Shown: one piece after another, positions 13,601 to 63,123 of the stretch
Layout of the letters: each line of letters opens with the position of its first letter
How positions within the stretch are numbered: the stretch's first letter is position 1
Assembly: GCA_023410715.1 (NCBI GenBank)
Contig: JAEYPN010000030.1
Span: 48,806-112,805 of the forward strand
Direction of reading: 5' to 3'
DNA: 64,000 bases
DNA from: Bacillota bacterium
GTDB lineage: Bacteria; Bacillota_I; Bacilli_A; Izemoplasmatales; UBA1188
Program-made: the position numbers and the translations under genes
Notes under the pieces: model-generated
Seen by the model: the letters and a program-made list of their open reading frames with translations, nothing else
What the model was told of the DNA's origin: nothing
Database searches by the model: none

Positions 13601-16600
13601 TGCATCTAAACAAGATGGTAGTACTTTAAACTCCATTTATGATTCAAAAACAAAAACCTGGTATTTGGATCAACCTGTTTCATATAATAATATCTTAGGT
13701 GATGAGGACAAAATAAATGGTAGTTGGGTTTTAGCAGATAAACAAGACGGTACAACTTTATACTCAATTTATGATTCAACTACAACCAAATGGTATTTAG
13801 ATCAACCGGTTTCATATAATGGTATTCTTGATGAAGAAGATAAGAGCTATCAATATGTTTTAGCTGATGTAAAAAATTATATTTATAGCAGTTCAAATGG
13901 TAAATGGTATTTAGATCAACCTGTTTCATATGATGGAGTTCTTGATGAAAAAGATCGTGTATTCCAATGGGTTATAGCTGATGCTCAGGATGGTTCAACT
14001 CCACACTCAATTTATGATTCAGCAACTGAAATCTATTATCTTGATCAGCCAACTACAAATGGTAAATTAGGTGATGAAGATCAAGTAAATGGTAGTTGGG
14101 TCTTAGCTGACTATCAAGATGGAACTTCATTAAATACAATTTATGATAATAAGACTAAAAAATACTATGTTGATCAAATTGTTTCATATAATGGGGTTTT
14201 AGGTGATGAAGATAAAAAAGTTGTAGTAACAAGTTCTACATCAAGTGAAATCTATTATGAGATTCCAAGTTCAATCGGAAAAGTTAATTATAAACCAGGA
14301 ACAAATCACTTAGGATCGATTAGACTGTCATTTAAGGTATATAATTTTAGAGATAAAACAGATTTAAGTGATATAATAACCTTATATCGTTATGATTCAA
14401 GAACTGGACAAAAAGTATTAGTTCCTCTAATGAATGGAGATATTATTAATTACACATTAATTGGTGGAGTCGTAACAAATGATAATAAAAATTTTGATAA
14501 TTTAAATAAATCATGGAGTTATGGAACACTTGATTTTGAATTATCATTATCACAGGATTTACAAGGCGGACTTTATTATGTCTATGTGTCACTTGGGACA
14601 GATGAATCTACTGATTACTATATCGCGTTTACGAAGATGAAGTCACCTGAACCAATTGTCACTGAGCTTGAATATGATGGAAATTCAATAATTCCTGAAT
14701 ATGAAAATCTTGATGATGAAACAAATTCTAACCGTTTTATCACATCATATACTAGTTACATTGAATTTGGCAAACATTATTTAGAAGGTGTAACTGATAA
14801 ATCAATGTATTTTGATGATTTAAGAACAATTGTTGATGTGTATTACAATGAAATAACCGGTAATAATTTACCTGATTATTTAACAAAACTAAGAATATCG
14901 CAATATTCAACAATTGAAAGCATTACATTTTCACTTGATTCATCATCAACTGCTTCACATCATAGATATATAATCACTTATACAATCTTGGCTGAAGATG
15001 GACTTACTAGAGGAACATTTATTCATTATATTGAAGAAATGAATGTTGATGTAAAAATTAAAGAAACATTTATTAATGGTAATACTGTTGATGCTCAAAA
15101 TAAAGTCTCATTTGCAAGAGAAGAAGCCCCTTTAATACATGTTGAATATGGTTTAACAGATATTTATAATTGGCAATACTTTTCATGCACAAGTAGTAAT
15201 CAAACCTTAGAAGATTCAATGTATTATATCAATGTTGACGAGTCATTTGGTTTTGAGATTATATTTGTTGAAGAACTAGACCCAGGTGATTACACGTTTA
15301 CCTTAAAATATAGTGCTTTAAATGTGTTAATATATGAAGGAAATCCAAGTATTACTAGTGATGATATTTATGTATCATATAATATTGTCTTTGAAATTTT
15401 AGAGGTAACAAAAAAGAAAAATGAAAATAGTTATCTTGAAGCTGTTAAGTTTGTAACAGATGTTATTTTTACCGGGTTAAATACAATTATTGATAATAAT
15501 CTTATTACCCCTGCAACTTATCAAAATTATTTAGTTAATGAGCAAGCGCGAAAAATTGTTTCATTACCAAGCGGAATATATTATAATGAATACAAAGCAA
15601 ATAATAATCGCTTCTGGGTAATTGGGCAGGTTCAAAAGACTAATCTTGATAGTTATATGCCAACCTTTACATTACCAATTGGCGCATTAGTTTACCGCGT
15701 AGAAATTGGATATCTTGAATCAGCAAATCAAGATGGTACAACCGCGCATTCAATTTATGATAGTGTAACTGAAAAATATTATTTAGATCAACCATTACCT
15801 AATTTAGTTTTAGGTGATGAGGACAAAGTTAATGGCGCTTGGATAATTGCATCTTCTCAGGATGGCACAACACCTAATTCCATTTATGACTTTGATACAA
15901 ATAAATGGTATATTGATCAAGCTGTTTATGATGGAAAACTTGGTAAAGAAGATAGGATTAAAGAATATCTAAAGGGTAATGGAACTATTGACTCAGAAGA
16001 TTTAAGATTTGATTTTAATCCACTTGACGAAGATAACTTTAATTATGTGACATATCGTGTGTTTGCAGAAGCATATATAGAAGGTGATGAAACATATGGT
16101 AATATGTACACCGATTATATCGTTTCTGTACAAGATGTTTCATTTAATGTTAAATTTGATATTGTTGTTGAAAAAGATGATTCATTTAATGTTAATCTTA
16201 ATAGCGAGCAACTTGTCGTTCATATTTCATTTGTTAACTATGAATCTGGTTATGTAATTGATAAGAATGGCAACTCTGTTTATGTACCATATAAGGATGA
16301 TACCCACATTAGAACAGCAATGTCAATGTTTTCATATTTAACAAGTAAAGACAATAAACAAGTTTTTATCAATAATCAGTTTTCAACAACTCAAGCTGGT
16401 TATTATAGAATAGATATTGAATTACCAGATAATTTAACATATGAATTGAGTTTTGCTTCATCAACAATTGTTGTTGATGAGGATAATAAAGGATTTATGG
16501 TTCAAGCATCCGTGATTCCAAAAAAATACCTGCTTAAAATAATCATCAAAGCAAATGGAAATCAAAGCGTTGATTGGGGACAACATCAGGAGACAATGGA

Positions 16601-42948: not shown

Positions 42949-43434
42949 TTGGTGAAAGATTTGAAGAGAATATTAATTTCTATAATTATATTATTAGTGG
43001 TTGTTTGTTTTAATAATATTGAGATCATGAATAAACCTTTAAAAGCGTACTTTTTAGAAACAATAAATATAACGAAAATAACAAATTTATTTAGAAACAA
43101 AAAAATTGAAAAGGTTAATTTAAATATGGATAAAGTACTAAGTAAAGAATTAGTACCTTTTAAAGATGGAGCTTTAGTTAAAATAAATGAGGATTTTGTA
43201 AATCCGCTTATGCCAGGTAGTGTTATATATGTCGGATATTTAGAATATTACGGAAACAGCGTGATAATTAAAGGTATTGATGGAAAAGAATATCATTATG
43301 GATTTTTAGAAAAAATTTATGTTAAATTATATGATGAAGTCACAGTTGAGACTGTGCTTGCCGATTTAAGTCTTGATCATGACATGTTATATTATTTATA
43401 CTTTTTAGAAATCAAGGGTTATGACATTATTTAA
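42949..43434 (+). CDS. SpoIVFA-like protein with a degenerate M23/LytM domain
   Basis: N-terminal TM followed by a C-terminal PGSVIYVGYLEYYGNSVIIKGIDGKEYHYGFLEKIYVKLYDEV. This has the LytM fold pattern, but the catalytic His positions are replaced. It lies directly upstream of an M50 protease gene, as in spoIVFA-spoIVFB. Confidence 0.5.
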   Translation: MVKDLKRILISIIILLVVVCFNNIEIMNKPLKAYFLETINITKITNLFRNKKIEKVNLNMDKVLSKELVPFKDGALVKINEDFVNPLMPGSVIYVGYLEYYGNSVIIKGIDGKEYHYGFLEKIYVKLYDEVTVETVLADLSLDHDMLYYLYFLEIKGYDII

Positions 43435-44170
43435 AAAAATAGAAATTCATTTTAGTAGTTATTTATGGTTGATTTTTTTGCTTTTTACTGGGCAAATATC
43501 TTTTTTCATTAATATGTTTATAATATTAGTTGCCCATGAACTAGGGCATATAATTATTATTAGATTATTAAATAGAAAAATATATAAAATTGTAATATTT
43601 CCACTTGGTGGAGTCATTGATTTTGAAATTGATAAAAATGCCGATTTAAAAGAAGAATTCCTAATTTTTTTAGGAGGATTATTAGTTAATATTTTAATTT
43701 GTTTTTTACCGCTGAGTGAAGAAATTAAAATATTTAATTTTTCTATGTTAATATTTAATGCATTGCCAATAATTCCACTTGATGGCGGAAGAATTTTAGA
43801 AAATTTAATTTCAAGATTTTTTTCTTTTATAAATACTTTAAAAATTATGAGTATATTTTCTATTACTGTAAGCATTTCTATTTATTTATACTTTTTGTTT
43901 ATCACAAGAAACTTTACTTATTTTGCTCTCCTATGTTACCTACTACTAGAAATTGTCAATTATTACTCCAAAATAAATAAACGTTTTAATTATTTTATCT
44001 TAAATAAATATCTTTATAATAACGATAGATTAAAAAGAAGAAAGGTAAAAAACAGTAACATTCCCAAGAATTTTTATAAAGGCTATAATAACTATCAAAA
44101 TGATAAGAATGAAAAATATTTGTTAGATACTTATTTTAAGAAAGAAACAAATAATAATTTTGATAAATAG
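43421..44170 (+). CDS. M50 site-2 metalloprotease, SpoIVFB-like (no CBS domain)
   Basis: Polytopic membrane protein with HELGH (LVAHELGHII) and NALPIIPLDGGRIL motifs. It sits before rplU, as in B. subtilis. Confidence 0.7.
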   Translation: MTLFKKIEIHFSSYLWLIFLLFTGQISFFINMFIILVAHELGHIIIIRLLNRKIYKIVIFPLGGVIDFEIDKNADLKEEFLIFLGGLLVNILICFLPLSEEIKIFNFSMLIFNALPIIPLDGGRILENLISRFFSFINTLKIMSIFSITVSISIYLYFLFITRNFTYFALLCYLLLEIVNYYSKINKRFNYFILNKYLYNNDRLKRRKVKNSNIPKNFYKGYNNYQNDKNEKYLLDTYFKKETNNNFDK

Positions 44171-44214
44171 TTTTGTAAATAAACTCAAACTTTATTTACA
44201 AAACTATTTTGTTT
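44168..44214 (+). terminator. Rho-independent terminator
   Basis: A 16-bp stem TAGTTTTGTAAATAAA ... TTTATTTACAAAACTA followed by TTTTGTTT. Confidence 0.8.
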
Positions 44215-44381
44215 AAATTTAAATTATCAATTAAATTTTTTATAAAAAAACCAATAAAATCTAGAAGCAAATAAATAATAATGATAGATAAAAAAGTAAA
44301 AGTTTCAAAATAAAAACAATTGTTGCGTTTACTTATTCCTTTAACAAATAAATATTAGTAGTAATAATAATAAAAAATAAA

Positions 44382-44410
44382 TTGACTTAAGTGTAAAATT
44401 AATGTATAAT
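44382..44410 (+). promoter_or_regulatory. Sigma-A promoter of the rplU-rpmA operon
   Basis: TTGACT (44382-87), 17 nt spacer, TGtTATAAT (TATAAT 44405-10). Confidence 0.65.
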
Positions 44411-44416
44411 TGTTAC

Positions 44417-44500
44417 GTATGTCGCATACCGCACAAAAAAGGTTATAAATCACATGGTGTGTACCTTTGTTTGGCGAGTCTATTAAATATATTTAGGAGG
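44417..44500 (+). promoter_or_regulatory. Probable L21 ribosomal-protein leader RNA
   Basis: An ~80-nt structured 5' UTR between the promoter and the rplU RBS. GTATGTCGCATACCGCAC forms a hairpin, and GGTGTGTACC/GGTTATAAATCACATGG segments follow. Position and length fit the Firmicute L21 leader, but I did not test it against a covariance model. Confidence 0.45.
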
Positions 44501-44509
44501 TGCAATTTA

Positions 44510-44818
44510 ATGTACGCAGTTATTGAAACAGGTGGAAAACAAGTTCGTTGTGAAGTTGGACAAAGTATTTATGTTGAAAAGATTGAAGTAGCAGCAGGCG
44601 AAAACTATACTTTTGATAAAATACTTATGGTCGGTGGAGAAAAGACTATTGTTGGTGAACCCTATATTGCAGGAGCTAGTGTTGTAGCAACTGTAGAAAA
44701 ACAAGGACGCGGTAAAAAAATTATTGTTTTCAAAATGAAACAAAAAAAGAAATACCGTCGTAAAAAAGGTCACAGACAATCTTACACAAAATTATTAATT
44801 CAAGAAATTAATGCTTAA
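44510..44818 (+). CDS. rplU: 50S ribosomal protein L21
   Basis: [18 protein letters not shown]... behind an AGGAGGTG RBS. The ORF-track start at 44402 is a spurious 5' extension through the leader. Confidence 0.95.
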
Positions 44819-44846
44819 TTAAAACTAAAAAATGGAGGTGTTTTCT

Positions 44847-45134
44847 ATGATATTAAACATGCAGGTTTTGGAACTATGTGCTTCTAAAAAAGGTGTTGGT
44901 TCTACTAAGAATGGTAGAGACTCAGCTGGTAGAAGATTAGGTGCTAAATTATCTGATGGACAATTCTGTACAGCTGGTAGTATTATATATCGTCAAAGAG
45001 GAACTAAAGTACATCCAGGTTTAAACGTTGGAATTGGCTCTGATGACACATTGTTCGCAACAATTGATGGTGTTGTTAAATTTGAAAGACTAGGAAAAGA
45101 TCGCAAAAAAGCGTCAGTATACCCAGTAGAATAA
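44847..45134 (+). CDS. rpmA: 50S ribosomal protein L27, with an N-terminal extension
   Basis: [34 protein letters not shown]...YRQRGTK... ATG 44847 lies 6 nt after a GGAGGTG RBS. Confidence 0.95.
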
Positions 45135-48688: not shown

Positions 48689-48776
48689 AGATTTTGACTA
48701 ATAAATTTATGCATATTATTGTGGTGCAAAATAATTTAAGGTATAATAAAATGAAGATTTATATTTTGGAGGTTTA

Positions 48777-51700
48777 ATGATGGGATCTAGTATTACTGAA
48801 TTAGTTAATCAAATACCTTTTGATTCACTCAATTTAATTTTTTTTGGAATATTTGGCGTTATAATTCTTGGAAAAATATTGAGTGGTCTTTTTAATGGAT
48901 TTACAAAAACTACCTATAGATTTATACGTTATACTGTCTTTTTAGTTGGTTTTTTCTTAACTGTAGATTTAGTTGCAAATTTTCTATATGATTTTAATTT
49001 ATCAAATTATAGTGAAATGATTAGCAATTTTTTAGCAATACCTAATACTGGAATTACAAATATTGAATCGATAGTTAAGTTATATGTAAAAACAAATTTT
49101 GCTCAATATAGTGATTTAGTTATAAATAATGCCGCTTTAATATCTCTAATTGCGGGAATTGCTAAATTTGTAATTAAAATTTTATACTTTATTCTGTATT
49201 TTACAGTGATAAGATTACTATATATAATAATTACTGGAATAATTAGAGCAATATTTGTGCCAAAAAATAATCGAAAAGATGTTGGAATGAGAAGCAAGAG
49301 TAAGCAAGGATTACTCGGAATGGTCGTAGGTTTTGTTTTCGGTGTTGTTGTATGCTTTAATGCTACAATAATCATGACATCACTTATGGGAATCTTAAAA
49401 ACAAGTTCCGAAGTAGTTGATGCAACAAATGCGATTAGTGAAAGATATTTAGAAGCAAATGATCCAAGTGGAAATCTCATCGATCCTGAGAATGTAAAAG
49501 AAATAAGGGTCGGTATTAATGCAATCAAGAAAATTTCTGAAATTTATGAAGAAAATAAAATAATAAAATTTTTGAATGGTATAACAATTTCAGTTAAAGA
49601 AGGTAAAGGAGATAGCGCTAAGCAAGTTACTTATCAAGCAAATGAATACTTGTTTGATAAAGTAATGTCAATTGATGCTTCTGGAACAAAAATTGCCTTT
49701 AGAAAAGAGTTAAATAATGTTTTAAATGCTTTATATGATGTTACTGATTCTAAGTTTATGGAGACTGGAGAAATAAAGGATTTAGAAGATTATACTGTTA
49801 CTAATGTTTTTTATCGATTATCGGACTCGAATTTAATTAATGTCTTATTTCCTGTGGCTATCGAAACTGCTGCTAAATATTTTGAAGTTGATGTTGATTT
49901 AAAAGAATTATATGGTGTAGACTGGAGTAAAGACTTCATGAGGCTTGGCGATATTGCTGGTGTATTTATAAGTGAAGGATTATTTGTTACATTTACAGAT
50001 AATAATGGTTCAATGATTGATATGCTTGCGGATGTGACAATTTCAAATACAGCATCAAATAAAATTGTTAATTCTATTTCAAAAATGGAATTATTAAATC
50101 GTTCATTTGAAATTGCTGTTGCCGGTGCCTTAACAACTGATGAAATAAAAGATGCTTTAGCTAAATATGATGTAGAAATTAGTGCTAGTGATTTTTCTAA
50201 TGTCAAGTTTGGCGAAGAATTAAGTAAAGTTGTTAAAATAGGTTTAATAACCTTAAATAATTTTGATAAAGCCATCGAAGGCGAAGAATTTAGCTTTAAA
50301 CTAGAGAATAGTTTTTATAAAGTTGATGTATATAAAGATATCGATACAATTGTTGATGAACTAACAAGTATGGATTTATTAACAATTGTTTTAGAAAAAG
50401 CCGCTGAATATGGCCAAAAATTATTAAATAACAAAGTTCCAGAACTTGAAGTATCAATTGCTGATATTGTCTGGGCAACTGAAGTTAATAATTTTGGAAA
50501 CATTTTAAAAAGTGTAGCAAGTGTGGAATTCGATTATACACAAGCTAAAGATAAAAATTATTTACTAAATATAGTTAGTGTTAAAAATAGTCAGTTACAA
50601 GATGTAATTTCATCTCTTTTTGAGTTGCAATTGATTGATAAAATGATTAAATCAGCTGTTCCATATATTAATAAAACATATGTGCCAGATGAATATAAAT
50701 TTATTCTTGATGATGCAAATGTAACAAAAGCTGGACTTGAAGGTGACGTAATTGGTTTAATTATTGTAGCTAAGGATATTTCAGATAATGGTGTAATTGA
50801 CCTTATTGAGAATAAAGAATACTTAAATTTACCTAGTGCAACCTTACGTACAGTTATATCTACTATCATGGATTTCTCTTTTATTTCAGGACGAGAAAAA
50901 GTTTTAATTGAAAATTTACTTGCTTTAGTAAAACTTGATGAGTTAGAAGACATTTCAATACCTGATAATATAAATTATAAAAATGAAATGTTGTTAATTG
51001 TTGATATCTATGATGAAGTTAAAAAAGCAAATATTGATTTAGATAATCCAACTAACATTCAAAATATAGAACCTAAAGCTTTAGAAAATATTTTTAAAAC
51101 CTTAGGATTATCAGAAATATTATCCTCACAGGGTGATCAACTTATTAAACTAGCTAATAAATTAATAAGTTCAGATGAAGAAGCAATATCGTTAAAATTT
51201 CCAGAAAACGTTGATTGGAAAAATGAATTTACTGTTATTGGTACAATTTTAAAGGATTTAATTACAGAAGCAAAGAAAATTGAAAATATTGATGGTTCTA
51301 AGAAATATATTGTTTTTAACGACTTTCTCAAAGAACCAACTGAACTTATTGATATAGTTGTTAAAATAGATACAGATAATTTATGTTTATCGCAAGTATT
51401 CTCACATACTATCGTAAGCTTATTATCTGGAAAAATGATTGAGTTTGAAGGTTTAGAAAAAATTAAAGTTCCTTATAGTGAAACTGATTCACGTTGGTTT
51501 TCAACTAAAAAAATAGTAGATGGAGAAGAAATTGTTACCCATCTTGAATTAAGCAAATTATTAAAAGCATTAAAAGAATTACTAGGTATTGTTGATCTTG
51601 AAAAACTTGATGAAATTGATACATCAATTCTAAATGAAATTTCTGATGAAATTGCAGATACATTATTCTCATCGCTTACAATTCAAGCTACATTATCATC

Positions 51701-54700
51701 AATAATAGAAGAATTAGACTTTGAAATTAATGGCTTTGGAATTACAATTCCAGATCACGTTGTAGATTATGCCGCAGAAGATACTTTAATATCTACAATT
51801 AGATTAATTAAAAAATCAGAATTTAAGAATTTAGTGGGTGCTGCAAAAGCAATTGATTTAGAAGCTTTAGCAAATGATCAAAATGAACCACTTGAAGTAT
51901 TAAAAGATACAACTGATCAAAATATTGAAAAATTATTTGATTCAGAAATCATTAGAGCAACGATATCTAATGCTCTAGCAACCTTCAGCACTGATGGTTT
52001 TGAAATAGTCGTCGTTACTGAAGTTGAGGATGAATATGGTTTAATTATAAAAAAAGAGTTTGTCGATTTGTTTAAAATCATCAAACTTGATGTGGTTAAT
52101 GAACTAATGAATCCTCCTGTTGATGAAATCACCGGTGAAGAAAAAGCAATTATCGATATCTTAAAAGATATGGAAGAATCAGAAATGTATCAAATATTTG
52201 ATTCTATGTTAATTAGAGCTTCAGCAACAAAGATGATTTTTGATTTGGATCTTGGTGATGATTTTAATCTTTTAGCACCATATTCAGTTAATATGGACGA
52301 TACAGCGTTAGAAATCAGGCATGTTAGAAACAGTGAGGATATAGTTTTAGAAAAGAGATATATTACTAAAGATGAATATGTTAGATTAATTACAGCGGTT
52401 AAGGTTCTTGATCTTGATTTACTAAAAGCAGATCAAATGGACTTTATTCAAAGTTTAAATACAGATGCTTATCCTGATGATGATGAAAATAACAAGACAA
52501 AAGCCAATGTTATATTAAATTCAAAAATTTTAAATGCATCATTAGGAAATACCATTTTAACATTAGATATTGATAATTTTACATTAATTATTCCAAAGAA
52601 TCTCATTATTAATGTAAAAAATCAAGATGATGCTTTAGTAGAAACTATATCTACAGCTGAACTTGATGCAATAATTACAGGCATAAATCAAATTAATATT
52701 GATAATATTTCTGATAATGACAAGATGCTTGACGAAGTAGCATCATTATCAAAAGCCTCAACAACTGATCCAACTAAAACTAAAATTAATTTAATTCTTG
52801 AAAGTCAAATTTTAGCTGCAACTATTGGTGGAAAAATTATTGAATTAAATGTTGATGGTATTGATATTATTGTTCCATTTGCGGCTATAACTAAAATTAT
52901 TGATCAAAACGATAATGAAAAAGATACTTTATTAACTGAAGAAATAACCGCAATTATTATAGGCGTTAATCAGATTGATTTAGATGCTTTATCTAATACA
53001 GACGATGGTAATGGTGGTAACCCAATGCTTGATGAAGTAAAATCTTTATCAGGACCATCAGAAACAAATCCAGGAGAGACTAAGCTTGAAGTTTTATTAA
53101 AGAGTAAAATTTTAGCTGCTACAATTGGACGAAAAATTTATTTAATCGATAGTGACTTAGACCAAGCAACGATTATAGTTCCAAAAGAAGTCGTAGTTAA
53201 TATTGAGACTAATAAACTTATTAGTGGTACAAGTGAGCATTTGTTTGTTGATATAGTAAATAATGACGAGGTAACAAATTTAATTGGAGCTTTAACTTAT
53301 ATTGATCTAAACGGCGAACTAGGAATGAGCACTGTAAAAAGTTTAAATGATGAAACAAGTGCGAACTCAGGCATTAAAAAATCAGAAAAAGTATACCAGT
53401 CAAAGATTTTAAAAGCTACTATTTCAAAAGTAGTTCTAGATATGCGAACTGATGCATCAAATCCAATTATTATTCCCGATGAAGCAATAGATAGTCAAGA
53501 AGAACATTTATTACACAATAATGATAATACAGTAATTCAAACAATTACTAATGATGAGTTTAATAGCGTTGTTTCAGGAATAGTCTATCTAGATGAAAAT
53601 AAATTAAATGGTACTGCAATTTTAAAAGATTTAAATGAAACAGTTGAAATCTATAAAAATGTCATTGATTCAAGAAAGAGATTTGCCCGTATATTAGTTA
53701 CAGTTAAAAAGAGCTCAATTGTATATAATTCACTAATTTTACAAGCTACAATCTCTAATAAAATCATAGGAATGACTAATGATGGTACAATTAAGATCAG
53801 TGAAAACTATGATTATGATATTTTACATATTAATGGTGAGCCAACAAACATGATTACTCGTGAAGAATTTGTAAACTTAGTAAATGCCTTTGCATGGCTT
53901 GATATTAATGATTTAGATAATATTAATGGCGTTACTATAATTGAAAAATTACAAGAAGATTCTATTGCTCCGCGAAAAATAGCGGATGAAGTTCATGATT
54001 CAATAGTTATTTCTTCAACTATCACTGATAAAGCTAAATCAATTGCTACTGGTTCGCTTGTAATAATTATTCCTGATTCAGCTAAAGATGAAAACGGAAA
54101 TATTAGTGCGCAAGAGTTATTAAAACTATCGGAAAGTATTTCTTGCTTACCAAAAGATGATGAAGATAACTTGATTTTTAATGGAATAGAAACGATAAAG
54201 AAATTAAATGAGCATACTGACCCAAGCAATCCAAGTAGTCCAATGAAATATGATAAAATCTATGAATCAGACATCTTAAAAGCTACTGTTTCTAATGAAA
54301 TTATCAAGCTTGAGTTGGATGGTACAATTGTTATTCCAGATAATGCCTATTTAAATGAAAATTATACTACTATGACTATTAGTCCTGAAGAGTTTTCAAA
54401 TCTGTGTGAAGGCTTAAATCATATTGATGTAGATTCATTCTCTGATGTTTCATTTGATGGTATTAAGATGCTAAAAGACTTAGATGCGCCATCTATCGTC
54501 GATGACCCTAGTTCAACAAAGAAGAGTGCAATTGTAATAAATTCCTTAATTCTTCAATGTACAATTTCAAGAGAAATTGTGAAACTTGATAATGATGAAG
54601 ATACAATTGTTATTCCAAGTGATGCTTATACACAAATGAAGTTTAACTTAATTTCAAAAGATGTTGTAACAGAAGATGAATTTATAAATCTAGTATCAGC

Positions 54701-56807
54701 AATTAATTATCTTGAAGTTAATGATTTTAAAGAAGCTTCATTTGATAGTGTTAAGATGTTAGAAGATTTAAATAAAAATATTATTGAAGGTGATAAATTA
54801 TCACCAAAAAGAAGTGAAATCATTATTAATTCTTTAATCCTACAATGTACAATTTCAAGAGAAATTGTGAAACTTGATAATGATGATACGATTATTATTC
54901 CTGATGATGCATATGAATCAAAAACAATTGATGGTTCAGAAACTAATATTGTATCCAAGAAAGAATTTAATGATTTAGTTGCTGGTATGGCTCATATAAA
55001 TGTAAATACGCTTAATGGTTCAGAAACAGTAAAAGCTTTAAATGATCCAATAGAGGAAGGTTCTACAACTACAAAAGCCAGTGCAGTATATAATTCTCTT
55101 ATCTTAAAATGTACGATATCACGAGAAGTAGTAAATATTTCATCACTTATAATTCCAGATAATGCTATTGAATATTTAAATGTAGATTCTAATCCAACTA
55201 AGGTTATAACAGAAGATGAGTTTACAAAAATTGTTCGTGGTCTTAAATACTTAGATGTAGACACTTTAAATGGTTCGGAAACAGTTAAAGCCTTAAATGA
55301 ACCAATTAAAGAAGGTTCAACAGTAACTAAAGCTAGCGTTGTATATGAATCAGATATCTTAAAATGTACAATTTCAAAAGAAATAATGGGTATTTCATCA
55401 CTTGCAATTCCAAATGAAGCAACGATTAGTATGAATGTTGATAGTGTAGCTACTAAAGTTATTACTAATGAAGAATTTACTTTAATTGTCAATGGACTTA
55501 ACTACATTGACGTTGATGGCTTAAATGGTATGAATACAATTAAGAGTTTAAATGATACTTCAAAAGGTTCTAGAACTAAACTTGATGAAATTTATGATTC
55601 TTTAATCTTAAGTGCAACTATTTCTCAAGAAATAAGAGGTTTATCAGAAGGAACGAATCCGACAATTGTTATTCCTAATAATGCTTATGTCGATGGTGTA
55701 TATGTCGATGGAATTATTCTAAAATCTGAAATCGCTAATCTAGTTGATGGAGTTAAACAATTATCGACAAAAGAAACAGGAGAACTTAATTTAGAAGGTT
55801 CATCAACGATAAAAACTTTAAATGCTAGTGCTGGAATCGCATATGGTGATAGAACAAAAGCTCAAGTAGTTTATTCATCACTAATTTTGAAAGCCTCAAT
55901 TTCGAAAGAAATATTTAATATTAGTTCGTTAATAATCACAACTGATGCATATACCCCATATTTAGTAAAAGACGGAAGCTTCAATATAATTGATGAAGTA
56001 GAATTTAATAATCTAGTTGTCGGTATGTGTCAGCTTGATATTGATCACTTAGATGGTCAAACAACGATTAATGATTTGAATTTACCTTCAGTTGATGATC
56101 CATTAAAAACTAAAGGTCAACTTGTTTACGAATCACTTATTTTAAAAGCTACAATTTCTGATACAATTATGGGTATTAGTAATTTAATTACTCCAGATGA
56201 TGTAAAAGTTGAAAAAACTAATAATCTTGGATCAACAGTTTATGTTTTAACAGATACTGAATTTAATGCCTTAATTAGAGGCATTAACACGATTGACTTT
56301 GAAGATGCAGGATTTGGCGCCAACTCAATTCTTTTATTAGAAGAAAATGAAATTGATAATTTAGTTTCTTCAAGAATCTTACAGGCTACAATTTCTTCAA
56401 AAATGAAACCAGTTATTGCTAGTAATGGAAACTTAGTATATATGTCAGAATGTGAAGATCAATATGGAGATATTTCTCCAGAAGAAATTAAGAGATTTAC
56501 TTTAGGTATTCAAGCACTTGGTTCTTCTGACATAGGTACGGTTGAATTAAATATTACTACAATTGTTGAATTTGATTCAGTAAAACAAGAAAAGGTTATA
56601 TCATCACTAATCTTTAGGGCTACAATTACTAAGATTTTAGTAACAAATATTAATGCTTATAATATCACTGCCCCATTGATTGGTAAAGAGAAAATTACAA
56701 TACTTGAAAGTGATTATGAGTATAAAAAGATTGATGGAAATAGTGAAGACTGCTTCTCAATTGATGGTACTAATCGCGTTATTAGTGAATGTAAAGAAAA
56801 AATGTAA
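48777..56807 (+). CDS. Giant (2676 aa) membrane-anchored repeat protein, unknown function
   Basis: GGAGG RBS. The N-terminal ~210 aa contain about 4-5 TM helices, with a possibly CvpA-like topology. About 19 repeats of ~85-100 aa follow, with the core S-x-IL-x-(A/C)TIS-x-x-(I/V)...(I/V)IP-x-x-A...(E/D)EF-x-x-L(V)-x-G...(L/I)D(V)...LNG...(I/V)K-x-LN. No LPxTG motif is present. Confidence 0.85.
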   Translation: MMGSSITELVNQIPFDSLNLIFFGIFGVIILGKILSGLFNGFTKTTYRFIRYTVFLVGFFLTVDLVANFLYDFNLSNYSEMISNFLAIPNTGITNIESIVKLYVKTNFAQYSDLVINNAALISLIAGIAKFVIKILYFILYFTVIRLLYIIITGIIRAIFVPKNNRKDVGMRSKSKQGLLGMVVGFVFGVVVCFNATIIMTSLMGILKTSSEVVDATNAISERYLEANDPSGNLIDPENVKEIRVGINAIKKISEIYEENKIIKFLNGITISVKEGKGDSAKQVTYQANEYLFDKVMSIDASGTKIAFRKELNNVLNALYDVTDSKFMETGEIKDLEDYTVTNVFYRLSDSNLINVLFPVAIETAAKYFEVDVDLKELYGVDWSKDFMRLGDIAGVFISEGLFVTFTDNNGSMIDMLADVTISNTASNKIVNSISKMELLNRSFEIAVAGALTTDEIKDALAKYDVEISASDFSNVKFGEELSKVVKIGLITLNNFDKAIEGEEFSFKLENSFYKVDVYKDIDTIVDELTSMDLLTIVLEKAAEYGQKLLNNKVPELEVSIADIVWATEVNNFGNILKSVASVEFDYTQAKDKNYLLNIVSVKNSQLQDVISSLFELQLIDKMIKSAVPYINKTYVPDEYKFILDDANVTKAGLEGDVIGLIIVAKDISDNGVIDLIENKEYLNLPSATLRTVISTIMDFSFISGREKVLIENLLALVKLDELEDISIPDNINYKNEMLLIVDIYDEVKKANIDLDNPTNIQNIEPKALENIFKTLGLSEILSSQGDQLIKLANKLISSDEEAISLKFPENVDWKNEFTVIGTILKDLITEAKKIENIDGSKKYIVFNDFLKEPTELIDIVVKIDTDNLCLSQVFSHTIVSLLSGKMIEFEGLEKIKVPYSETDSRWFSTKKIVDGEEIVTHLELSKLLKALKELLGIVDLEKLDEIDTSILNEISDEIADTLFSSLTIQATLSSIIEELDFEINGFGITIPDHVVDYAAEDTLISTIRLIKKSEFKNLVGAAKAIDLEALANDQNEPLEVLKDTTDQNIEKLFDSEIIRATISNALATFSTDGFEIVVVTEVEDEYGLIIKKEFVDLFKIIKLDVVNELMNPPVDEITGEEKAIIDILKDMEESEMYQIFDSMLIRASATKMIFDLDLGDDFNLLAPYSVNMDDTALEIRHVRNSEDIVLEKRYITKDEYVRLITAVKVLDLDLLKADQMDFIQSLNTDAYPDDDENNKTKANVILNSKILNASLGNTILTLDIDNFTLIIPKNLIINVKNQDDALVETISTAELDAIITGINQINIDNISDNDKMLDEVASLSKASTTDPTKTKINLILESQILAATIGGKIIELNVDGIDIIVPFAAITKIIDQNDNEKDTLLTEEITAIIIGVNQIDLDALSNTDDGNGGNPMLDEVKSLSGPSETNPGETKLEVLLKSKILAATIGRKIYLIDSDLDQATIIVPKEVVVNIETNKLISGTSEHLFVDIVNNDEVTNLIGALTYIDLNGELGMSTVKSLNDETSANSGIKKSEKVYQSKILKATISKVVLDMRTDASNPIIIPDEAIDSQEEHLLHNNDNTVIQTITNDEFNSVVSGIVYLDENKLNGTAILKDLNETVEIYKNVIDSRKRFARILVTVKKSSIVYNSLILQATISNKIIGMTNDGTIKISENYDYDILHINGEPTNMITREEFVNLVNAFAWLDINDLDNINGVTIIEKLQEDSIAPRKIADEVHDSIVISSTITDKAKSIATGSLVIIIPDSAKDENGNISAQELLKLSESISCLPKDDEDNLIFNGIETIKKLNEHTDPSNPSSPMKYDKIYESDILKATVSNEIIKLELDGTIVIPDNAYLNENYTTMTISPEEFSNLCEGLNHIDVDSFSDVSFDGIKMLKDLDAPSIVDDPSSTKKSAIVINSLILQCTISREIVKLDNDEDTIVIPSDAYTQMKFNLISKDVVTEDEFINLVSAINYLEVNDFKEASFDSVKMLEDLNKNIIEGDKLSPKRSEIIINSLILQCTISREIVKLDNDDTIIIPDDAYESKTIDGSETNIVSKKEFNDLVAGMAHINVNTLNGSETVKALNDPIEEGSTTTKASAVYNSLILKCTISREVVNISSLIIPDNAIEYLNVDSNPTKVITEDEFTKIVRGLKYLDVDTLNGSETVKALNEPIKEGSTVTKASVVYESDILKCTISKEIMGISSLAIPNEATISMNVDSVATKVITNEEFTLIVNGLNYIDVDGLNGMNTIKSLNDTSKGSRTKLDEIYDSLILSATISQEIRGLSEGTNPTIVIPNNAYVDGVYVDGIILKSEIANLVDGVKQLSTKETGELNLEGSSTIKTLNASAGIAYGDRTKAQVVYSSLILKASISKEIFNISSLIITTDAYTPYLVKDGSFNIIDEVEFNNLVVGMCQLDIDHLDGQTTINDLNLPSVDDPLKTKGQLVYESLILKATISDTIMGISNLITPDDVKVEKTNNLGSTVYVLTDTEFNALIRGINTIDFEDAGFGANSILLLEENEIDNLVSSRILQATISSKMKPVIASNGNLVYMSECEDQYGDISPEEIKRFTLGIQALGSSDIGTVELNITTIVEFDSVKQEKVISSLIFRATITKILVTNINAYNITAPLIGKEKITILESDYEYKKIDGNSEDCFSIDGTNRVISECKEKM
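51380..56700 (+). repeat. About 19-20 tandem ~85-100-aa coding repeats (unassigned family)
   Basis: The core motif recurs, for example in VYNSLILKCTISREVV, VYESDILKCTISKEIM, VYSSLILKASISKEIF and VYESLILKATISDTIM. Two neighbouring units share a 44-nt exact match (54555-54598 and 54843-54886). Boundaries are approximate. Confidence 0.8.
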
Positions 56808-57061: not shown

Positions 57062-58765
57062 ATGAAAAAAAAGTTATCATTATTTATTTTGTTTATTTTA
57101 TGCTTAATATTATCTAGTTGTGATCTTTTTACAAAGGCTTCAACAAAAGTTACAACAACTAGTAATATAACATCAAATATAACATCAAGTAGCAAAACAA
57201 GTAGTAAAACAAGTAGTAAAACAAGTAGTAAAACAACAACTTCGGCAACTACAGTTCCAACGACTAAAAAGCCTACAACGAGTATTTCAACAAAAAATAC
57301 ATTTACAACAATAACTACGACTAGTACAACAACTAGTATAACAACTAAACCAACAGAATTAGTTACAATTAATTTTTATGCATTTAATGATTTACATGGA
57401 TATATTAATTCTAATGAACCAAATTTAAGTAAAATAGCTAATTATCTAGTAAATGCGAAAGAAAATAATAAAAATACTGTTATTCTAGCTAATGGTGATA
57501 TGTTCCAGGGAACTGCTTTATCTAATTATTATTATGGCTTACCAATTGTTGAAACTCTTAATTATTTAGAGGTTGATGCATTTACAATAGGTAATCACGA
57601 GTTTGACTGGGGAATCGATAAAATTGCGAATTATAAAGATGGTAATTTAACTAATGGTGAAGCTAATTTCTCGTTTTTAGCTGCAAATATTGTTGATAAG
57701 GATAATGAAGAATTATTGTCTTTTACTGAACCTTATACAATTATTGAAAGAGAAGGCGTTAAAATTGGTATTATTGGCACAATCGGGGAATATGAAAACT
57801 CAATTGCTGCAAGTCGTGTTGCAGGTTATAAGTTTGTTGATCCAAATGAAACTGCTAGAAAATATGCAAGAATTTTAAGAGAAGAAAATGATTGTAAGAT
57901 CGTTATTTTATTAACCCATTCATATGATGAATATCTATCTGATAATAATACCATTGCAAAGTTTGAAGGTAGCGAAAGAATAGATGCGATTTTTAATGGA
58001 CATCTTCACTGGAATGTTAATGGGGTTATAAATGGTAAAAATCATCAAGTACCTTATGCACAAGTAGATTCAAGCAATAACTTCTTATCATTAATAACAA
58101 TAGTATATGATCCAGTTACTGAAGATGTAATGCCACAATACCCACAGCTAATAAGTAAGTCAAACTTTACTCAAGAAGATGAGTATGCTAAGAATATTAT
58201 CAATGCTTTTAATAGTGACGAGATATACTTAAATTTTATTAATGAAGAATTTTTGGTATCTCGCGAATATTTGTATCGTAATAATATGCCACAGTATCTT
58301 TCTTCAGTAATAAAATATGCTGCACATGTTGACTTTGGTATGGTAAATAGTGGTGGAGTTAGAAAAGCAATAGAATCAAACAAAATGTTAACAATGGCTG
58401 ATCTAGTTTTAATATATCCATTTGACAATGCTATCAAAACATGTTCTTTAAAAGGTTCTGATATTATAGATTTATATTTAAATGCTCAAAAAGGATATGC
58501 GGATGTTGTATTTGATCTAGATGTTACTTATAATAGTGGAAACCTATACATTAAAGGAGAGAAAGTTGATCCAAATAAAATGTATACAGTGGGAGCTGTA
58601 GATTATATTTTTGATAAAGATAATTATCCATTCCTTAAGGGAGAAAACATTTTATACACTAGCATGTTAATGAGAGATTTAATGGTTGAAGATTTAAGAT
58701 TACAAAAATCTAGTGGCATTACTGAATTTTATCCAAGTAATGGACCATTTACATCATGGAATTAA
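57062..58765 (+). CDS. Lipoprotein 5'-nucleotidase / metallophosphoesterase (UshA-like) with a Ser/Thr-rich linker
   Basis: Lipobox LILSS-C. A ~90-aa S/T/K-rich linker includes 4x SSKT. Calcineurin-like motifs are NDLHGY, GDMFQGT and GNHEFDWG, and a C-terminal 5'-nucleotidase-type domain is present. Confidence 0.8.
   Translation: MKKKLSLFILFILCLILSSCDLFTKASTKVTTTSNITSNITSSSKTSSKTSSKTSSKTTTSATTVPTTKKPTTSISTKNTFTTITTTSTTTSITTKPTELVTINFYAFNDLHGYINSNEPNLSKIANYLVNAKENNKNTVILANGDMFQGTALSNYYYGLPIVETLNYLEVDAFTIGNHEFDWGIDKIANYKDGNLTNGEANFSFLAANIVDKDNEELLSFTEPYTIIEREGVKIGIIGTIGEYENSIAASRVAGYKFVDPNETARKYARILREENDCKIVILLTHSYDEYLSDNNTIAKFEGSERIDAIFNGHLHWNVNGVINGKNHQVPYAQVDSSNNFLSLITIVYDPVTEDVMPQYPQLISKSNFTQEDEYAKNIINAFNSDEIYLNFINEEFLVSREYLYRNNMPQYLSSVIKYAAHVDFGMVNSGGVRKAIESNKMLTMADLVLIYPFDNAIKTCSLKGSDIIDLYLNAQKGYADVVFDLDVTYNSGNLYIKGEKVDPNKMYTVGAVDYIFDKDNYPFLKGENILYTSMLMRDLMVEDLRLQKSSGITEFYPSNGPFTSWN
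57188..57235 (+). repeat. Four tandem 12-nt units (AGTAG(C/T)AAAACA) encoding (SSKT)4
   Basis: Read directly: units at 57188-199, 57200-211, 57212-223 and 57224-235. The last three are identical. Confidence 0.9.
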
Positions 58766-59907: not shown

Positions 59908-59961
59908 AAAAGCAATTCTTATATTATATAATTAGATGAAAAAATTAAGATGAGGTGGAGA

Positions 59962-62900
59962 ATGAACGATTATTACTTTGAAAAAAATGACTTTATAATT
60001 AAAAATTATGATCAAAAGAAAACATTTTCTAGTTTCTTACCCGCGTTAGCTGGAAAACATGGTATTCCTCTATGGGCATTTTATGTTAATCGCGGTCAAG
60101 GGATTGCTAGCTTTGGTATTCGTGATAAAAATGGTTCGATTATGGAATTTTTTCCAGCTAATGCAGCATATATTCATACTGCTCATTTAGGGTTTAGAAC
60201 ATTTATTAAAGATGAAAATAATAAAACATATGAAATATTTTCAACTGAGAATAAAAATAAAAGAGAAATGCACATTAAACAAGCTGAATTCAGCATTGTT
60301 GAATATAATCCTGAATTAAACATTAAGGTGACAATTACTTATTTTGGCTTGCCAAATGAAAAAATTGCTTCACTTGTTAGAATGGTAAAAATTGAAAATC
60401 TAAGTGATGTAGAACGTCATTTAGAGGTTTTAGATGGTATTGCTCAAATTTTACCAGCTGGAACAGGATACGAAGCATATAAGATGGTTTCTCATATTCG
60501 TCGTAGTTTCATGGAAGTTAACGAACTAGAAAATAATTTTGCTTTTTATCAAATGAAAGGTAATGGAGCAGATGAAGCAGAAATGCAAAGCGTTATTGAT
60601 GGAAACTATTATTTTTCTATCTATAATGATCAGTTAGTTAAACCTATATGTGATAGTAATTTAATTTTTGATTATGATACAGCTTTAACTAAACCTGAAT
60701 ATTTTAATAATCATTCATTAAATGAAATCCTAAAAGAACCACAAATAACAGATAATAAAGTTCCTTGTGGATTTACAGCTGTAAAAGTTGTGTTAACTAA
60801 AGAAAAGCCAGTTAATATTGATACTTTAATTGGTTATGCAAGTAAAATTGATATTCTTAAAAAAGAAATGGATAAATTCCTTTCTCACGAATATGTTGAA
60901 GCAAAGCGCAATGAAGCGACTTTAGTTATTGATGAATTATTAAATGATATTGATACATCAACTAATTATCCAATTTTTGATGAATACGTTAAACAAATGT
61001 ATCTTGACAACATCTTACGTGGTGGTTATCCGCTTGTAATAAATTCAGAAAACAAAAATTTTTGTTACCATATTTATTCACGTAAACATGGTGACTTAGA
61101 GCGCGATTATAACTACTTTACAATTAATCCCGAATTTTATTCGCAAGGTAACGGTAACTTCCGTGATGTTTGCCAAAATCGTCGTTGTGATGTATTCTTT
61201 AATAAGGATGTTTATGATAATAACATTCATGTTTTTGCCAGTTTAATTCAAGCAGATGGTTATAATCCACTTCAATTAAGCGGTCTAACATTTGAAATTA
61301 AAGATAAATCTAAAGTAGATGAATTATTAAATCTATTCAAAAACAAAAAAGAAGTAATGGAAAAACTACTTTTAGGTAAATTTACTCCTGGATCAATCAT
61401 TAATACACTTGAAAACGAAGAAATTGAAGTTACTTTTGATTTAACAGGTGAAGAAAGAGATAATAAATTATTTACTGAAATATTTAAATATGCTGAATCA
61501 AATATTGAAGCTAATTATGCTGAAGGATATTGGATTGATCACTGGACTTATATCCTTGATATATTTAAAAACTTCTACCGTATTTATCCTGATAAAGTTT
61601 ATGATTGCTTATTTAAACGTAATGATTATCGTTTCTTTGAATCATGCGCAACTGTTTACCCTCGCGATGAAAAATATGTTTTATCCAAAAATGGTAAAGT
61701 TCGTCAATTTGGAGCTGTAAATAAAAATGATCTTGAAAAAGTAAACAAGCTTGGATTAACTAGAGGAAGCAACTGGCTAAAAACTGCTGATGGAAACATT
61801 TTAGAAACTAACCTTTATGGTAAGTTCTTAGTATTAGCGATCAACAAATTTGCGCTTTTAGACCAGGAACAAATGGGTATTGAAATGGAAGCTGATCGTC
61901 CAGGATGGAATGATGCGATGAATGGTTTACCAGGAATATTTGCTTCAGGTGTTTCAGAGACAATTGAATTAAAGAGATTAATTGAAACATTGCTTGTTTA
62001 TTCTAAAGAAAATGAATTTGTTAAATTACCATATGAATTTGTCAAATTCGCAGACAGAATTGAGTCTATTTTAGGTATTAAAGATCATTTTGAGTTTTGG
62101 GATAAACTTTCAACTGTAAGAGAAAATTACAGAAGTGATATCCGTCTTGGCTCAAAAGCCGCAATGGAAGTTAAAGCTAATAGATATGATGCAATGCTTA
62201 GAGAAATGTTAGAAATTATTAATGATGGTATCAGACGTGCCATTCAATTAGGAAATGGTATTGTACCAACATATTTATCATACGAAGTAACTGATTATGA
62301 AAAGATTTTAGTTGATGGTAAAGAAAAAATTACTCATTATGGCTTGCCAGCTGTTAAAGCTAAAGCCTTCAAGGTAACTTTAATTCCATTATTCTTAGAA
62401 GCACCTGCGAGATATTTTACATCATGCTTTGATCGTGATGAATTAAAAGATATGTATAAGAAGGTTAAATCATCGGAGTTATATGATGAAGCTTTAAAAA
62501 TGTATAAAACTTCAACACCTCTTGATGACTGGTCAACTGATATTGGCCGTATTAGAATCTTTAGTAAAGGCTGGCTCGAAAGAGAATCAAACTTTATGCA
62601 TATGACTTATAAATATATGCTAGGTTTAATTAAAGGTGGATTATACCGTGATTTCTATAATGAGATAATGTCAAATTTCTCGTGCTTTATGGACCCAAGT
62701 GTATATGGAAGAAACCCACTTGAAAATTCATCATTTATTGCGACATCTAACAATCCTGATAAATCATTACATGGTCAAGGATTCTATGCAAGACTTTCAG
62801 GTTCAACATCAGAAGTATTAATTATTTGGGAATTAATGTTTATGGGACATCATCCATTTATCTTAAAAGATGGTAAGTTATCACTTAAACTTAAACCTTT

Positions 62901-63123
62901 ATTATCTCGTCATTTCTTCAAAAATGGCAAAGTATCATTTATGCTTTTAAGTCATACTAAGGTTACTTATATTAACGAGGATGATTTAAACTTATTTGAA
63001 AAAGGAAAAGCTTATAAATATGTTTTAGATGGAAAAGAAATTTTAGGTGAATCACTTCCTGAACAAGAATCCTTAGATGTACGAAATGGTAAAGTAAAAG
63101 AATTAGTTGTATATTTTAAATAA
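59962..63123 (+). CDS. Large (about 1050 aa) putative glycoside phosphorylase/hydrolase-like protein with a probable (alpha/alpha)6-barrel
   Basis: ATG 59962 lies behind a GAGGTGGAG RBS. EADRPGWNDAMNGLPG resembles the catalytic G-D-W-N-D region of GH94-type phosphorylases. The size and the context between nagA and a GH2 gene fit a carbohydrate-active enzyme. The family assignment is not secure. Confidence 0.35.
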   Translation: MNDYYFEKNDFIIKNYDQKKTFSSFLPALAGKHGIPLWAFYVNRGQGIASFGIRDKNGSIMEFFPANAAYIHTAHLGFRTFIKDENNKTYEIFSTENKNKREMHIKQAEFSIVEYNPELNIKVTITYFGLPNEKIASLVRMVKIENLSDVERHLEVLDGIAQILPAGTGYEAYKMVSHIRRSFMEVNELENNFAFYQMKGNGADEAEMQSVIDGNYYFSIYNDQLVKPICDSNLIFDYDTALTKPEYFNNHSLNEILKEPQITDNKVPCGFTAVKVVLTKEKPVNIDTLIGYASKIDILKKEMDKFLSHEYVEAKRNEATLVIDELLNDIDTSTNYPIFDEYVKQMYLDNILRGGYPLVINSENKNFCYHIYSRKHGDLERDYNYFTINPEFYSQGNGNFRDVCQNRRCDVFFNKDVYDNNIHVFASLIQADGYNPLQLSGLTFEIKDKSKVDELLNLFKNKKEVMEKLLLGKFTPGSIINTLENEEIEVTFDLTGEERDNKLFTEIFKYAESNIEANYAEGYWIDHWTYILDIFKNFYRIYPDKVYDCLFKRNDYRFFESCATVYPRDEKYVLSKNGKVRQFGAVNKNDLEKVNKLGLTRGSNWLKTADGNILETNLYGKFLVLAINKFALLDQEQMGIEMEADRPGWNDAMNGLPGIFASGVSETIELKRLIETLLVYSKENEFVKLPYEFVKFADRIESILGIKDHFEFWDKLSTVRENYRSDIRLGSKAAMEVKANRYDAMLREMLEIINDGIRRAIQLGNGIVPTYLSYEVTDYEKILVDGKEKITHYGLPAVKAKAFKVTLIPLFLEAPARYFTSCFDRDELKDMYKKVKSSELYDEALKMYKTSTPLDDWSTDIGRIRIFSKGWLERESNFMHMTYKYMLGLIKGGLYRDFYNEIMSNFSCFMDPSVYGRNPLENSSFIATSNNPDKSLHGQGFYARLSGSTSEVLIIWELMFMGHHPFILKDGKLSLKLKPLLSRHFFKNGKVSFMLLSHTKVTYINEDDLNLFEKGKAYKYVLDGKEILGESLPEQESLDVRNGKVKELVVYFK

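Follow-up and report, generated by a model that had tools for sequence, protein, structure and literature searches.

Giant repetitive surface proteins are known from Firmicutes, where Ebh and Embp, with their FIVAR-GA repeats, are acidic and membrane-anchored and carry tens of tandem small domains that are presumed to form a rod. In proteins of the Ebh type the signal peptide is cleaved, the FIVAR/GA modules are entirely helical and the anchor sits at the C-terminus. Here we analyze a giant gene at 48777..56807 of a 64,000-nucleotide stretch of DNA (the window; contig JAEYPN010000030.1 of assembly GCA_023410715.1) from a bacterium of the order Izemoplasmatales. Its product shares with Ebh and Embp, as these are generally described, a very large size, acidity, membrane anchoring and tens of tandem small domains. 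It differs in that its anchor is N-terminal and CvpA-like, and in that its unit is a predicted alpha/beta domain of ~90 amino acids (aa) without a Pfam match.

The anchor has counterparts of its own in CvpA and in Colicin_V–trypsin fusions of the MarP/Rv3671c type; the MarP protease domain is periplasmic. Such fusions are described from Actinobacteria, where Colicin_V forms an N-terminal module joined to a trypsin domain (PMC2605481). The giant protein resembles them in that an N-terminal Colicin_V-type module bears a large C-terminal part predicted to be extracytoplasmic, but it lacks a protease domain, with no match to Trypsin or Trypsin_2. CvpA itself is described as conserved across bacterial phyla with a largely unknown function, and Escherichia coli CvpA is predicted to pass the membrane four times and to end in a periplasmic C-terminus whose length varies between species (bioRxiv 10.1101/2020.09.25.314492).

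A preliminary description, made from the sequence alone, had proposed a polytopic N-terminal membrane domain followed throughout by a monotonous array of about 19 repeats of no known family, and had offered a wall-spanning ruler, a surface fibril or a spacer as possible roles. We find that the repeat array is real and belongs to a family with a fixed architecture, and we take its anchor to be, in all likelihood, a CvpA paralog that has diverged, the window's own sequence falling short of the Pfam threshold for membership. Full-text literature searched for CvpA giants, Colicin_V architectures and Izemoplasma contained no description of this family. Giant repeat surface proteins and CvpA fusions are known as kinds of protein; the ~90-aa repeat and its pairing with a CvpA anchor are both undescribed in the literature searched.

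Results

The repeat array

The gene is a single open reading frame (ORF) of 2676 codons under translation table 11, and its product has a mass of 296 kDa, an isoelectric point (pI) of 4.41 and 12 cysteines. The frame is intact and its architecture is kept in relatives. A hidden Markov model (HMM) seeded with 7 units finds 19 units at aa 958–2676, in line with the first count, and a family HMM of 2410 units, most of them from other proteins, finds 20 at aa 865–2676 with individual E-values of 1.4e-19 to 2e-5. Units in the array average 90.6 aa. The conserved columns of their alignment, S-x-IL-x-ATIS, IPD, EEF..LV.G and LNG..K.LN, are the motifs quoted in the preliminary description, and the protein has a few cysteines at a conserved helix position. 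Recovery by HMM in other giant proteins and in 400 cluster representatives lies far beyond chance. Together with the hydropathy profile, these results bear out a polytopic membrane domain followed by repeats.

Two parts of the preliminary description did not hold. The repeats do not fill everything behind the membrane domain, as aa 211–864 give only insignificant matches (individual E-values 0.011–0.92). Nor is the array monotonous: its units share 14–63% identity, the closest pair being aa 2099–2183 and 2184–2266, and mean identity is 34% between adjacent units and 25% between units at least five apart. Tandem Repeats Finder detected no DNA-level repeat in the gene. Judged from these values, the array is therefore old and diverged, and not prone to slippage.

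The protein is no orphan. Only two distant giants came out of a word-based search, one with 2771 aa and 21 units, the other with 2829 aa and 19 units, and the nearest relatives are 23–33% identical. A 19-unit profile searched against 1.84 billion cluster representatives matched 400 at E ≤ 1e-3, of which 273 still pass at E ≤ 1e-10 and 133 at E ≤ 1e-30. The 150 representatives listed are 461 to 3623 aa long and contain as many as 33 matched stretches each. Across 152 family proteins the repeat count runs from 5 to 34 (median 11) and correlates with length (r = 0.83). Within its own 1.97-Mb genome, the giant ORF is the sole carrier of the repeat among 4365 ORFs of at least 60 aa.

Predicted fold of the repeat

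Three consecutive units (aa 2011–2266) were modeled with AlphaFold2, using 115 additional in-register triplets, 5 from the same protein and 110 from relatives. The model has a mean predicted local distance difference test (pLDDT) score of 90.9 and a predicted template modeling (pTM) score of 0.86. Each modeled unit runs from a short helix into a long helix that holds S-x-IL-x-ATIS, then a beta-hairpin after IPD, a helix with EEF..LV.G and a final helix with K.LN. Because a pTM of 0.86 is high for three separate beads, the model suggests fixed packing between units, and hence a rod and not beads on a string.

No Pfam or NCBIfam family matches the giant protein at its cut-off, and none covers the repeat. 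Pfam searches of 22 family members gave no individually significant stretch; two whole-protein scores barely exceeded their cut-offs, HDOD in P0022 and Itfg2 in P0086, each with no significant stretch. A sequence profile of the repeat searched against PDB chains gave eight matches at E ≤ 10, the best at only 0.025 (FjoF/Fl3F), with EF-hand proteins at 0.6–0.8. The assignment of the repeat to no known family thus stands. Sub-threshold EF-hand_6 matches occur in two relatives; an EF-hand calcium-binding reading was considered and rejected, since the family consensus does not preserve the D-x-D-x-LNG stretch.

With the three-unit model as query, Foldseek returned no match at E ≤ 1e-3 among 350,542 PDB chains, VIA-align against PDB representatives gave nothing convincing and a structure search of BFVD found nothing. 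Provisionally, and for this three-unit query, the repeat appears to be a fold without a known counterpart. Lacking a catalogued family, it is a candidate new domain family.

The CvpA-like membrane domain

Kyte–Doolittle windows of at least 1.6 are confined to aa 12–208 of the giant protein. We modeled aa 1–620 with AlphaFold2 from 40 aligned family N-termini. Mean pLDDT is 72.6 over the whole model, mostly 82–95 through aa 400 and mostly 86–95 within the membrane domain (aa 1–210). Four long helices are predicted, at aa 15–40, 42–72, 119–160 (a single 42-residue helix) and 178–228. Of 33 repeat-bearing ORFs at 20 loci, 31 start with a hydrophobic helix and, behind it, G-x-x-(R/K)-G-(F/L/M)-(K/R)-(K/R). 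Among 12 ORFs of other families, 10 start in the same way and the remaining two are N-terminally cut. Seven residues, G37, G41, F59, T62, K134, F142 and G181, are invariant across 26 aligned N-termini.

Several comparisons connect this domain to CvpA. Among 26 N-termini, a set made up of the window's own and those of 25 relatives, 18 match the Pfam family PF02674 (Colicin_V) at E ≤ 1, with a best value of 2.6e-7; the window's own is not one of the 18, and the giant protein thus also misses the curated cut-off of 29.3 bits. The genome also encodes an ordinary CvpA of 249 aa, which scores above that cut-off. When the family N-terminus alignment was compared with this CvpA by hhalign, the two were co-linear over 192 columns (probability 79.5%, E = 1.5e-5), a span that takes in the long loop joining helices 2 and 3. 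In the ESM Atlas, the nearest clusters to aa 1–960 are named 'hypothetical protein' and come from Bacillota (scores 0.91–0.93, with a recognition value below the trusted level), and PF02674 is annotated on 10% of the members of one of them. Both CvpA and the giant protein have a four-helix domain, a basic G-x-x-R/K-G-F motif after the first transmembrane helix (TM1), a basic loop preceding a Gly-rich last helix, and a C-terminus of variable length that is predicted to lie outside. They differ in length, CvpA having ~160–250 aa and the giant protein ~2470 residues more, and loop 2 is longer in the giant protein. As CvpA's own function is unknown, the link accounts for anchoring and not for function.

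Predicted topology and anchoring

The charge distribution around the helices was scored in 40 sequences. Net charge is positive in loop 1 in all 40 and in loop 3 in 39, and negative in none for either loop. The N-terminal tail is positive in 4 and negative in 28, loop 2 is positive in none and negative in 37, and the 35 residues past TM4 are positive in 1 and negative in 35. The basic loops at aa 38–52 and 158–180 are accordingly predicted to be cytoplasmic. Under the positive-inside rule, this charge pattern and the four helices would place both termini, and with them aa 206–2676, outside the cell. The prediction agrees with those made for E. coli CvpA and with the Colicin_V–trypsin fusions.

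Loop 3 varies in length within the family. Four f2 proteins carry Lys/Arg-rich inserts of ~40–70 aa in it (L021:6476-7195, L022:13228-13947, L027:6827-7546 and L028:7417-8136), and P0003 has an Asp/Glu-rich insert of ~250 aa in the same loop, at aa ~165–400. These inserts look like a variable cytoplasmic handle on the anchor.

The giant protein contains no LPxTG-like motif, no hydrophobic window beyond aa 208 and no lipobox ([LVI][ASTVI][GAS]C) within its first 260 aa, and no sortase (PF04203) was found in the 93.55%-complete genome. Judged from the sequence, this leaves the N-terminal membrane domain as the anchor, as had been proposed.

The juxtamembrane module and neck

The stretch behind the membrane domain is also well conserved. 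By BLASTP, aa 18–396 is the best-conserved part of the protein, with 27–33% identity to many members, and phmmer matches extend over aa 217–448. In the AlphaFold2 model the TM4 helix continues to aa 228 and is followed at aa 237–399 by a mixed module of helices and a beta-hairpin (pLDDT ~80–93), in which N260, F293, D294, R309 and E311 are nearly invariant.

The neck that connects this module to the array is variable and probably helical, with low AlphaFold2 confidence past aa 405. Matches of the repeat HMM to it are weak (individual E-values 0.058–0.92), some of them at aa 655–803, while by hhalign the first repeat of relatives aligns from ~aa 611 with a probability of 97.3%. About three degenerate units may thus be present from ~aa 611 onward. 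In the hhalign comparison of neck and repeat, the first true repeat alone was matched, and the juxtamembrane module showed no detectable repeat copy.

Distribution of the family

A six-frame search found the repeat in 30 of 41 related genomes and in 45 of 300 genomes sampled from the class. Among families of its own order in this class sample, here designated f1, f2 and f3, carriers number 2/2, 8/17 and 15/15, respectively. Outside the order, the repeat occurs in f7 (10/12), f26 (2/2), f28 (4/6) and single genomes of three further families. In a sample of the phylum it was found in 20 of 399 genomes at E ≤ 1e-8 and, at the same threshold, in none of the small-genome families f22 (0/89), f14 (0/54), f6 (0/48) and f10 (0/42).

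All named members of the ten clusters examined are 'hypothetical proteins', labeled Candidatus Izemoplasmatales, Tenericutes or Mycoplasmatota. The N-terminus alignment matched 62 loci in named genome records, from Candidatus Izemoplasmatales/Izimaplasma metagenome-assembled genomes, Candidatus Izemoplasma sp. B36, Haloplasma contractile, Haloplasmataceae, Liberiplasma polymorphum, Acholeplasmatales/Acholeplasmataceae and unclassified Bacillota. The CvpA-like start and the repeats are common to family members.

Tandem paralogs were observed at all 12 f3 loci (L015–L020, L023–L026, L029 and L030), where a long copy of 2246–3340 aa with 16–30 units precedes a short one of 581–1521 aa with 2–9 units, the 581-aa copy being cut by a contig end. 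The CvpA-like start is shared by both paralogs. In the window's genome the gene occurs once.

Cell wall genes in carriers

The window's genome encodes two penicillin-binding proteins, FtsW/RodA, MurG and six genes of the Mur ligase family. Among five other carrier genomes, PF00905 gave no match in four that are 92–99% complete and three matches in the fifth, from f7. The four without it (G001, G011, G013 and G039) include one of the window's own family, so wall loss seems to vary within the group. A cultured Izemoplasma relative is described as having no visible wall, and the named carriers come mostly from lineages described as wall-less (PMC8397711). By gene content, the family would operate both with and without a wall.

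Expression signals and gene neighborhood

Coordinates of the features discussed are collected in Table 1. The gene starts with ATG-ATG, and a GGAGG lies 4 nucleotides 5′ of the ATG. Promoter-like sites occur in the DNA about as often as in shuffled sequence (93 counted, 94.2 expected), which makes the candidate promoter of the giant gene weak evidence. The hairpin at the 3′ end is likely an intrinsic terminator; it is palindromic, the scan assigns it to the minus strand, and its plus-strand T-run lies partly within the stem. From these promoter, ribosome-binding site and hairpin patterns, the giant gene could be transcribed alone. Its GC content of 0.27–0.29 is the same as that of the remaining window.

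Table 1. Coordinates of the giant gene, its parts and adjacent features
Feature	Coordinates	Strand	Basis
Whole ORF, 2676 aa	48777..56807	+	Table 11 translation
CvpA-like membrane domain, aa 1–210	48777..49406	+	Hydropathy, AlphaFold2, hhalign, charge pattern
Juxtamembrane module, aa 211–400, family-conserved	49407..49976	+	BLASTP, phmmer, AlphaFold2
Variable neck, aa 401–864	49977..51368	+	AlphaFold2, repeat HMM, hhalign
Array of 20 tandem repeats of ~90 aa, aa 865–2676	51369..56804	+	HMM domain tables, alignment, AlphaFold2
Starts of units 1–10: aa 865, 959, 1048, 1135, 1241, 1335, 1435, 1534, 1644, 1735			
Starts of units 11–20: aa 1823, 1915, 2011, 2099, 2184, 2267, 2360, 2445, 2524, 2602			
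Candidate promoter, TTGACT-17-TATTGT (48694–48722) and perfect TATAAT (48743–48748)	48694..48748	+	Consensus scan, sequence reading
Ribosome-binding site GGAGG	48769..48773	+	Sequence reading
Hairpin AAAAGATGGTT-loop-AACCATCTTTT with trailing T residues; overlaps the stop codon	56806..56836	+	Scan and sequence reading
5′-nucleotidase, 567 aa, Metallophos and 5_nucleotid_C, downstream neighbor	57062..58765	+	Pfam, N-terminus

The gene order in the window is valS, folC-like, radC, M23, M50, rplU, rpmA, a 426-aa polytopic membrane protein, YcxB-like, a 622-aa tetratricopeptide repeat protein, the giant gene, 5′-nucleotidase, amidohydrolase, a 1057-aa unknown and GH2. The 5′-nucleotidase begins with a lipoprotein signal (…LILSSC); the linker behind it is rich in Ser, Thr and Lys and includes TSSK repeats. 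In three f1 relatives scanned the order is radC-rplU-rpmA-(~390 aa)-(157 aa)-giant-obg-ruvA, and at all five f3 loci scanned a 5′-nucleotidase gene lies directly 3′ of the giant gene or genes. None of the neighbors seen in the window, f1 or f3 is present at three f2 loci, and the 12 giant genes in other families have varied neighbors, with no 5′-nucleotidase or trypsin among them. The 5′-nucleotidase thus appears as a conserved neighbor in the window and f3, not shown to be a partner. As a lipoprotein with a linker, it fits a surface setting and the DNA-foraging lifestyle of the Izemoplasmatales, described as specialized degraders of extracellular DNA with secreted nucleases and 5′-nucleotidases (PMC8289736).

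A Trypsin_2 gene of ~290 aa stands divergently upstream of the long giant gene at the same five f3 loci (L015:3045-3914(-), L016:15492-16400(+), L019:2665-3519(-), L020:2989-3867(-) and L025:17184-18074(+)). The adjacency echoes the Colicin_V–trypsin fusions; the sole Trypsin_2 gene of the window's genome is on another contig.

Three further observations concern other genes of the window. The M23-like and M50 peptidase genes at 42949..45134 (+) precede rplU-rpmA, with no mreBCD or minCD between radC and them, and this M23-M50-rplU-rpmA order resembles spoIVFA-spoIVFB-rplU-rpmA of Bacillus. A second giant ORF at 7683..16616 (+) encodes 2977 aa (pI 4.6), has a single hydrophobic, signal-like segment at its N-terminus and matches nothing in Pfam beyond a weak GLUG motif (E = 2e-4); it is unrelated to the ~90-aa repeat, as the repeat HMM matched a single ORF of the genome. 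The 1057-aa ORF (59950..63123, +), between the amidohydrolase and the GH2 glycosidase, lacks a hydrophobic segment and matches none of the Pfam families at E ≤ 1e-3.

Discussion

We favor, with moderate confidence, the reading that the giant protein is an extracellular fibril, spacer or adhesive rod, tethered in the membrane by the CvpA-type module, which serves as anchor and export platform. Its acidity (pI 4.4), its few cysteines, the sortase that was not found and the adjoining lipoprotein nucleotidase were counted in favor of an extracellular fibril. In the model that we infer for its topology, export route, rod shape and length, and function, aa 1–210 would form a four-helix domain of a divergent CvpA type, its N-terminus lying outside and its basic loops 1 and 3 in the cytoplasm. 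TM4, which follows the Lys/Arg-rich loop, resembles an uncleaved signal-anchor, and Sec/YidC would export the ~2470 residues behind it. The TM4 helix would continue into the juxtamembrane module and then the variable neck, beyond which the 20 tandem alpha/beta domains would pack head-to-tail into a fairly stiff acidic rod. At an assumed spacing of 2.5–4 nm per unit, 20 units would measure 50–80 nm. Such a rod may serve cells that lack sortase, and mostly lack a wall, as a spacer, a coat or an adhesive fibril at their surface. Being so large and so widely conserved in its carriers, the giant protein is likely a major surface component of them.

Several points weigh against this reading. The topology is predictive, derived as it is from the positive-inside rule and from what has been predicted for CvpA, and the export of ~2470 residues behind an internal signal-anchor is at most plausible. 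PF02674 gives no match at E ≤ 1 for the giant protein, whether the whole sequence or its first 240 aa is searched, and the hhalign probability with CvpA leans positive without being decisive. Confidence in the packing between units may have been inflated by the paralogous triplet alignment supplied to AlphaFold2. No adhesin-like tip domain was found in the protein, and no gene partner is conserved family-wide, the nucleotidase link being limited to the window and f3. For want of a tip domain and a family-wide partner, 'fibril, spacer or adhesin' stays generic.

An unlikely but arguable alternative is that the CvpA-type domain is the functional core, with a role in envelope stress or ion homeostasis such as has been proposed for E. 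coli CvpA, and that the C-terminal part is an enlarged sensing or binding tail and not a fibril. Conservation does peak at aa 18–396, that is, in the membrane domain and juxtamembrane module, and the invariant G37, G41, F59, K134, F142 and G181 sit in the membrane domain. Warr et al. also propose that the variable periplasmic C-terminus of CvpA binds partners or senses stimuli (bioRxiv 10.1101/2020.09.25.314492). However, the genome retains a separate, ordinary CvpA of 249 aa, which makes the giant protein an extra paralog, and a copy number that varies from 5 to 34 among 152 members (median 11) suits a length-giving structure better than a sensor.

We consider it improbable that the protein is a nutrient-capture fibril for extracellular nucleic-acid foraging, in which the rod would space surface enzymes such as the 5′-nucleotidase or bind polymeric substrates. 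The adjacency of the 5′-nucleotidase gene in the window and at 5/5 f3 loci, the long Ser/Thr-rich linker of the window's lipoprotein enzyme and the description of Izemoplasmatales as degraders of extracellular DNA (PMC8289736) would all fit it. Yet this adjacency is absent from the three f1 and three f2 loci and from the 12 giants of other families, an acidic rod of pI 4.3 would be a poor DNA binder, and neighboring genes alone are weak evidence.

Much less credible is a cytoplasmic location for the repeats, which would make the protein a membrane-tethered intracellular scaffold. It has no cleavable signal peptide, it is very large and acidic with few cysteines at the conserved helix position, and the topology evidence is entirely predictive; against this, the charges of loops 1 and 3 (positive in 40/40 and 39/40) and of the region past TM4 (negative in 35/40), together with the four helices, put the C-terminal part outside, and the C-terminus of CvpA is likewise predicted to be periplasmic (bioRxiv 10.1101/2020.09.25.314492). 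Of the three roles first suggested, the surface fibril or spacer fits best, and the periplasm- or wall-spanning molecular ruler, which the wall synthesis genes of the window's genome and the ability of a membrane-anchored rod to cross a wall would allow, is disfavored to the point of being very unlikely: PF00905 is unmatched in four of five carrier genomes, named carriers are mostly of wall-less lineages (PMC8397711), a family that works with and without a wall argues against it, and a repeat number of 5–34 is unsuited to a fixed wall thickness.

A more far-reaching extension of the fibril reading, which we hold to be doubtful, is that CvpA-anchored rods are the main surface coat of free-living, wall-less or near-wall-less Mollicute-like bacteria, a dense brush of stiff, acidic fibrils in place of a wall or S-layer. 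If true, lipoprotein nucleases and nucleotidases would work in a periplasm-like zone that the brush sets up. Repeat number would set its thickness, and long and short paralogs would give it two tiers. CvpA in general would then serve as a platform in the membrane from which a C-terminal domain is exported and on which it is held outside the cytoplasm.

The surface organization of the mostly wall- and sortase-less Izemoplasma-, Haloplasma- and Acholeplasma-like bacteria is little understood. With its confidently predicted fold and no catalogued family, the ~90-residue repeat is a good target for structure determination, and a CvpA-type module bearing up to 3600 residues of predicted extracytoplasmic repeats may offer a new route to the role of CvpA.

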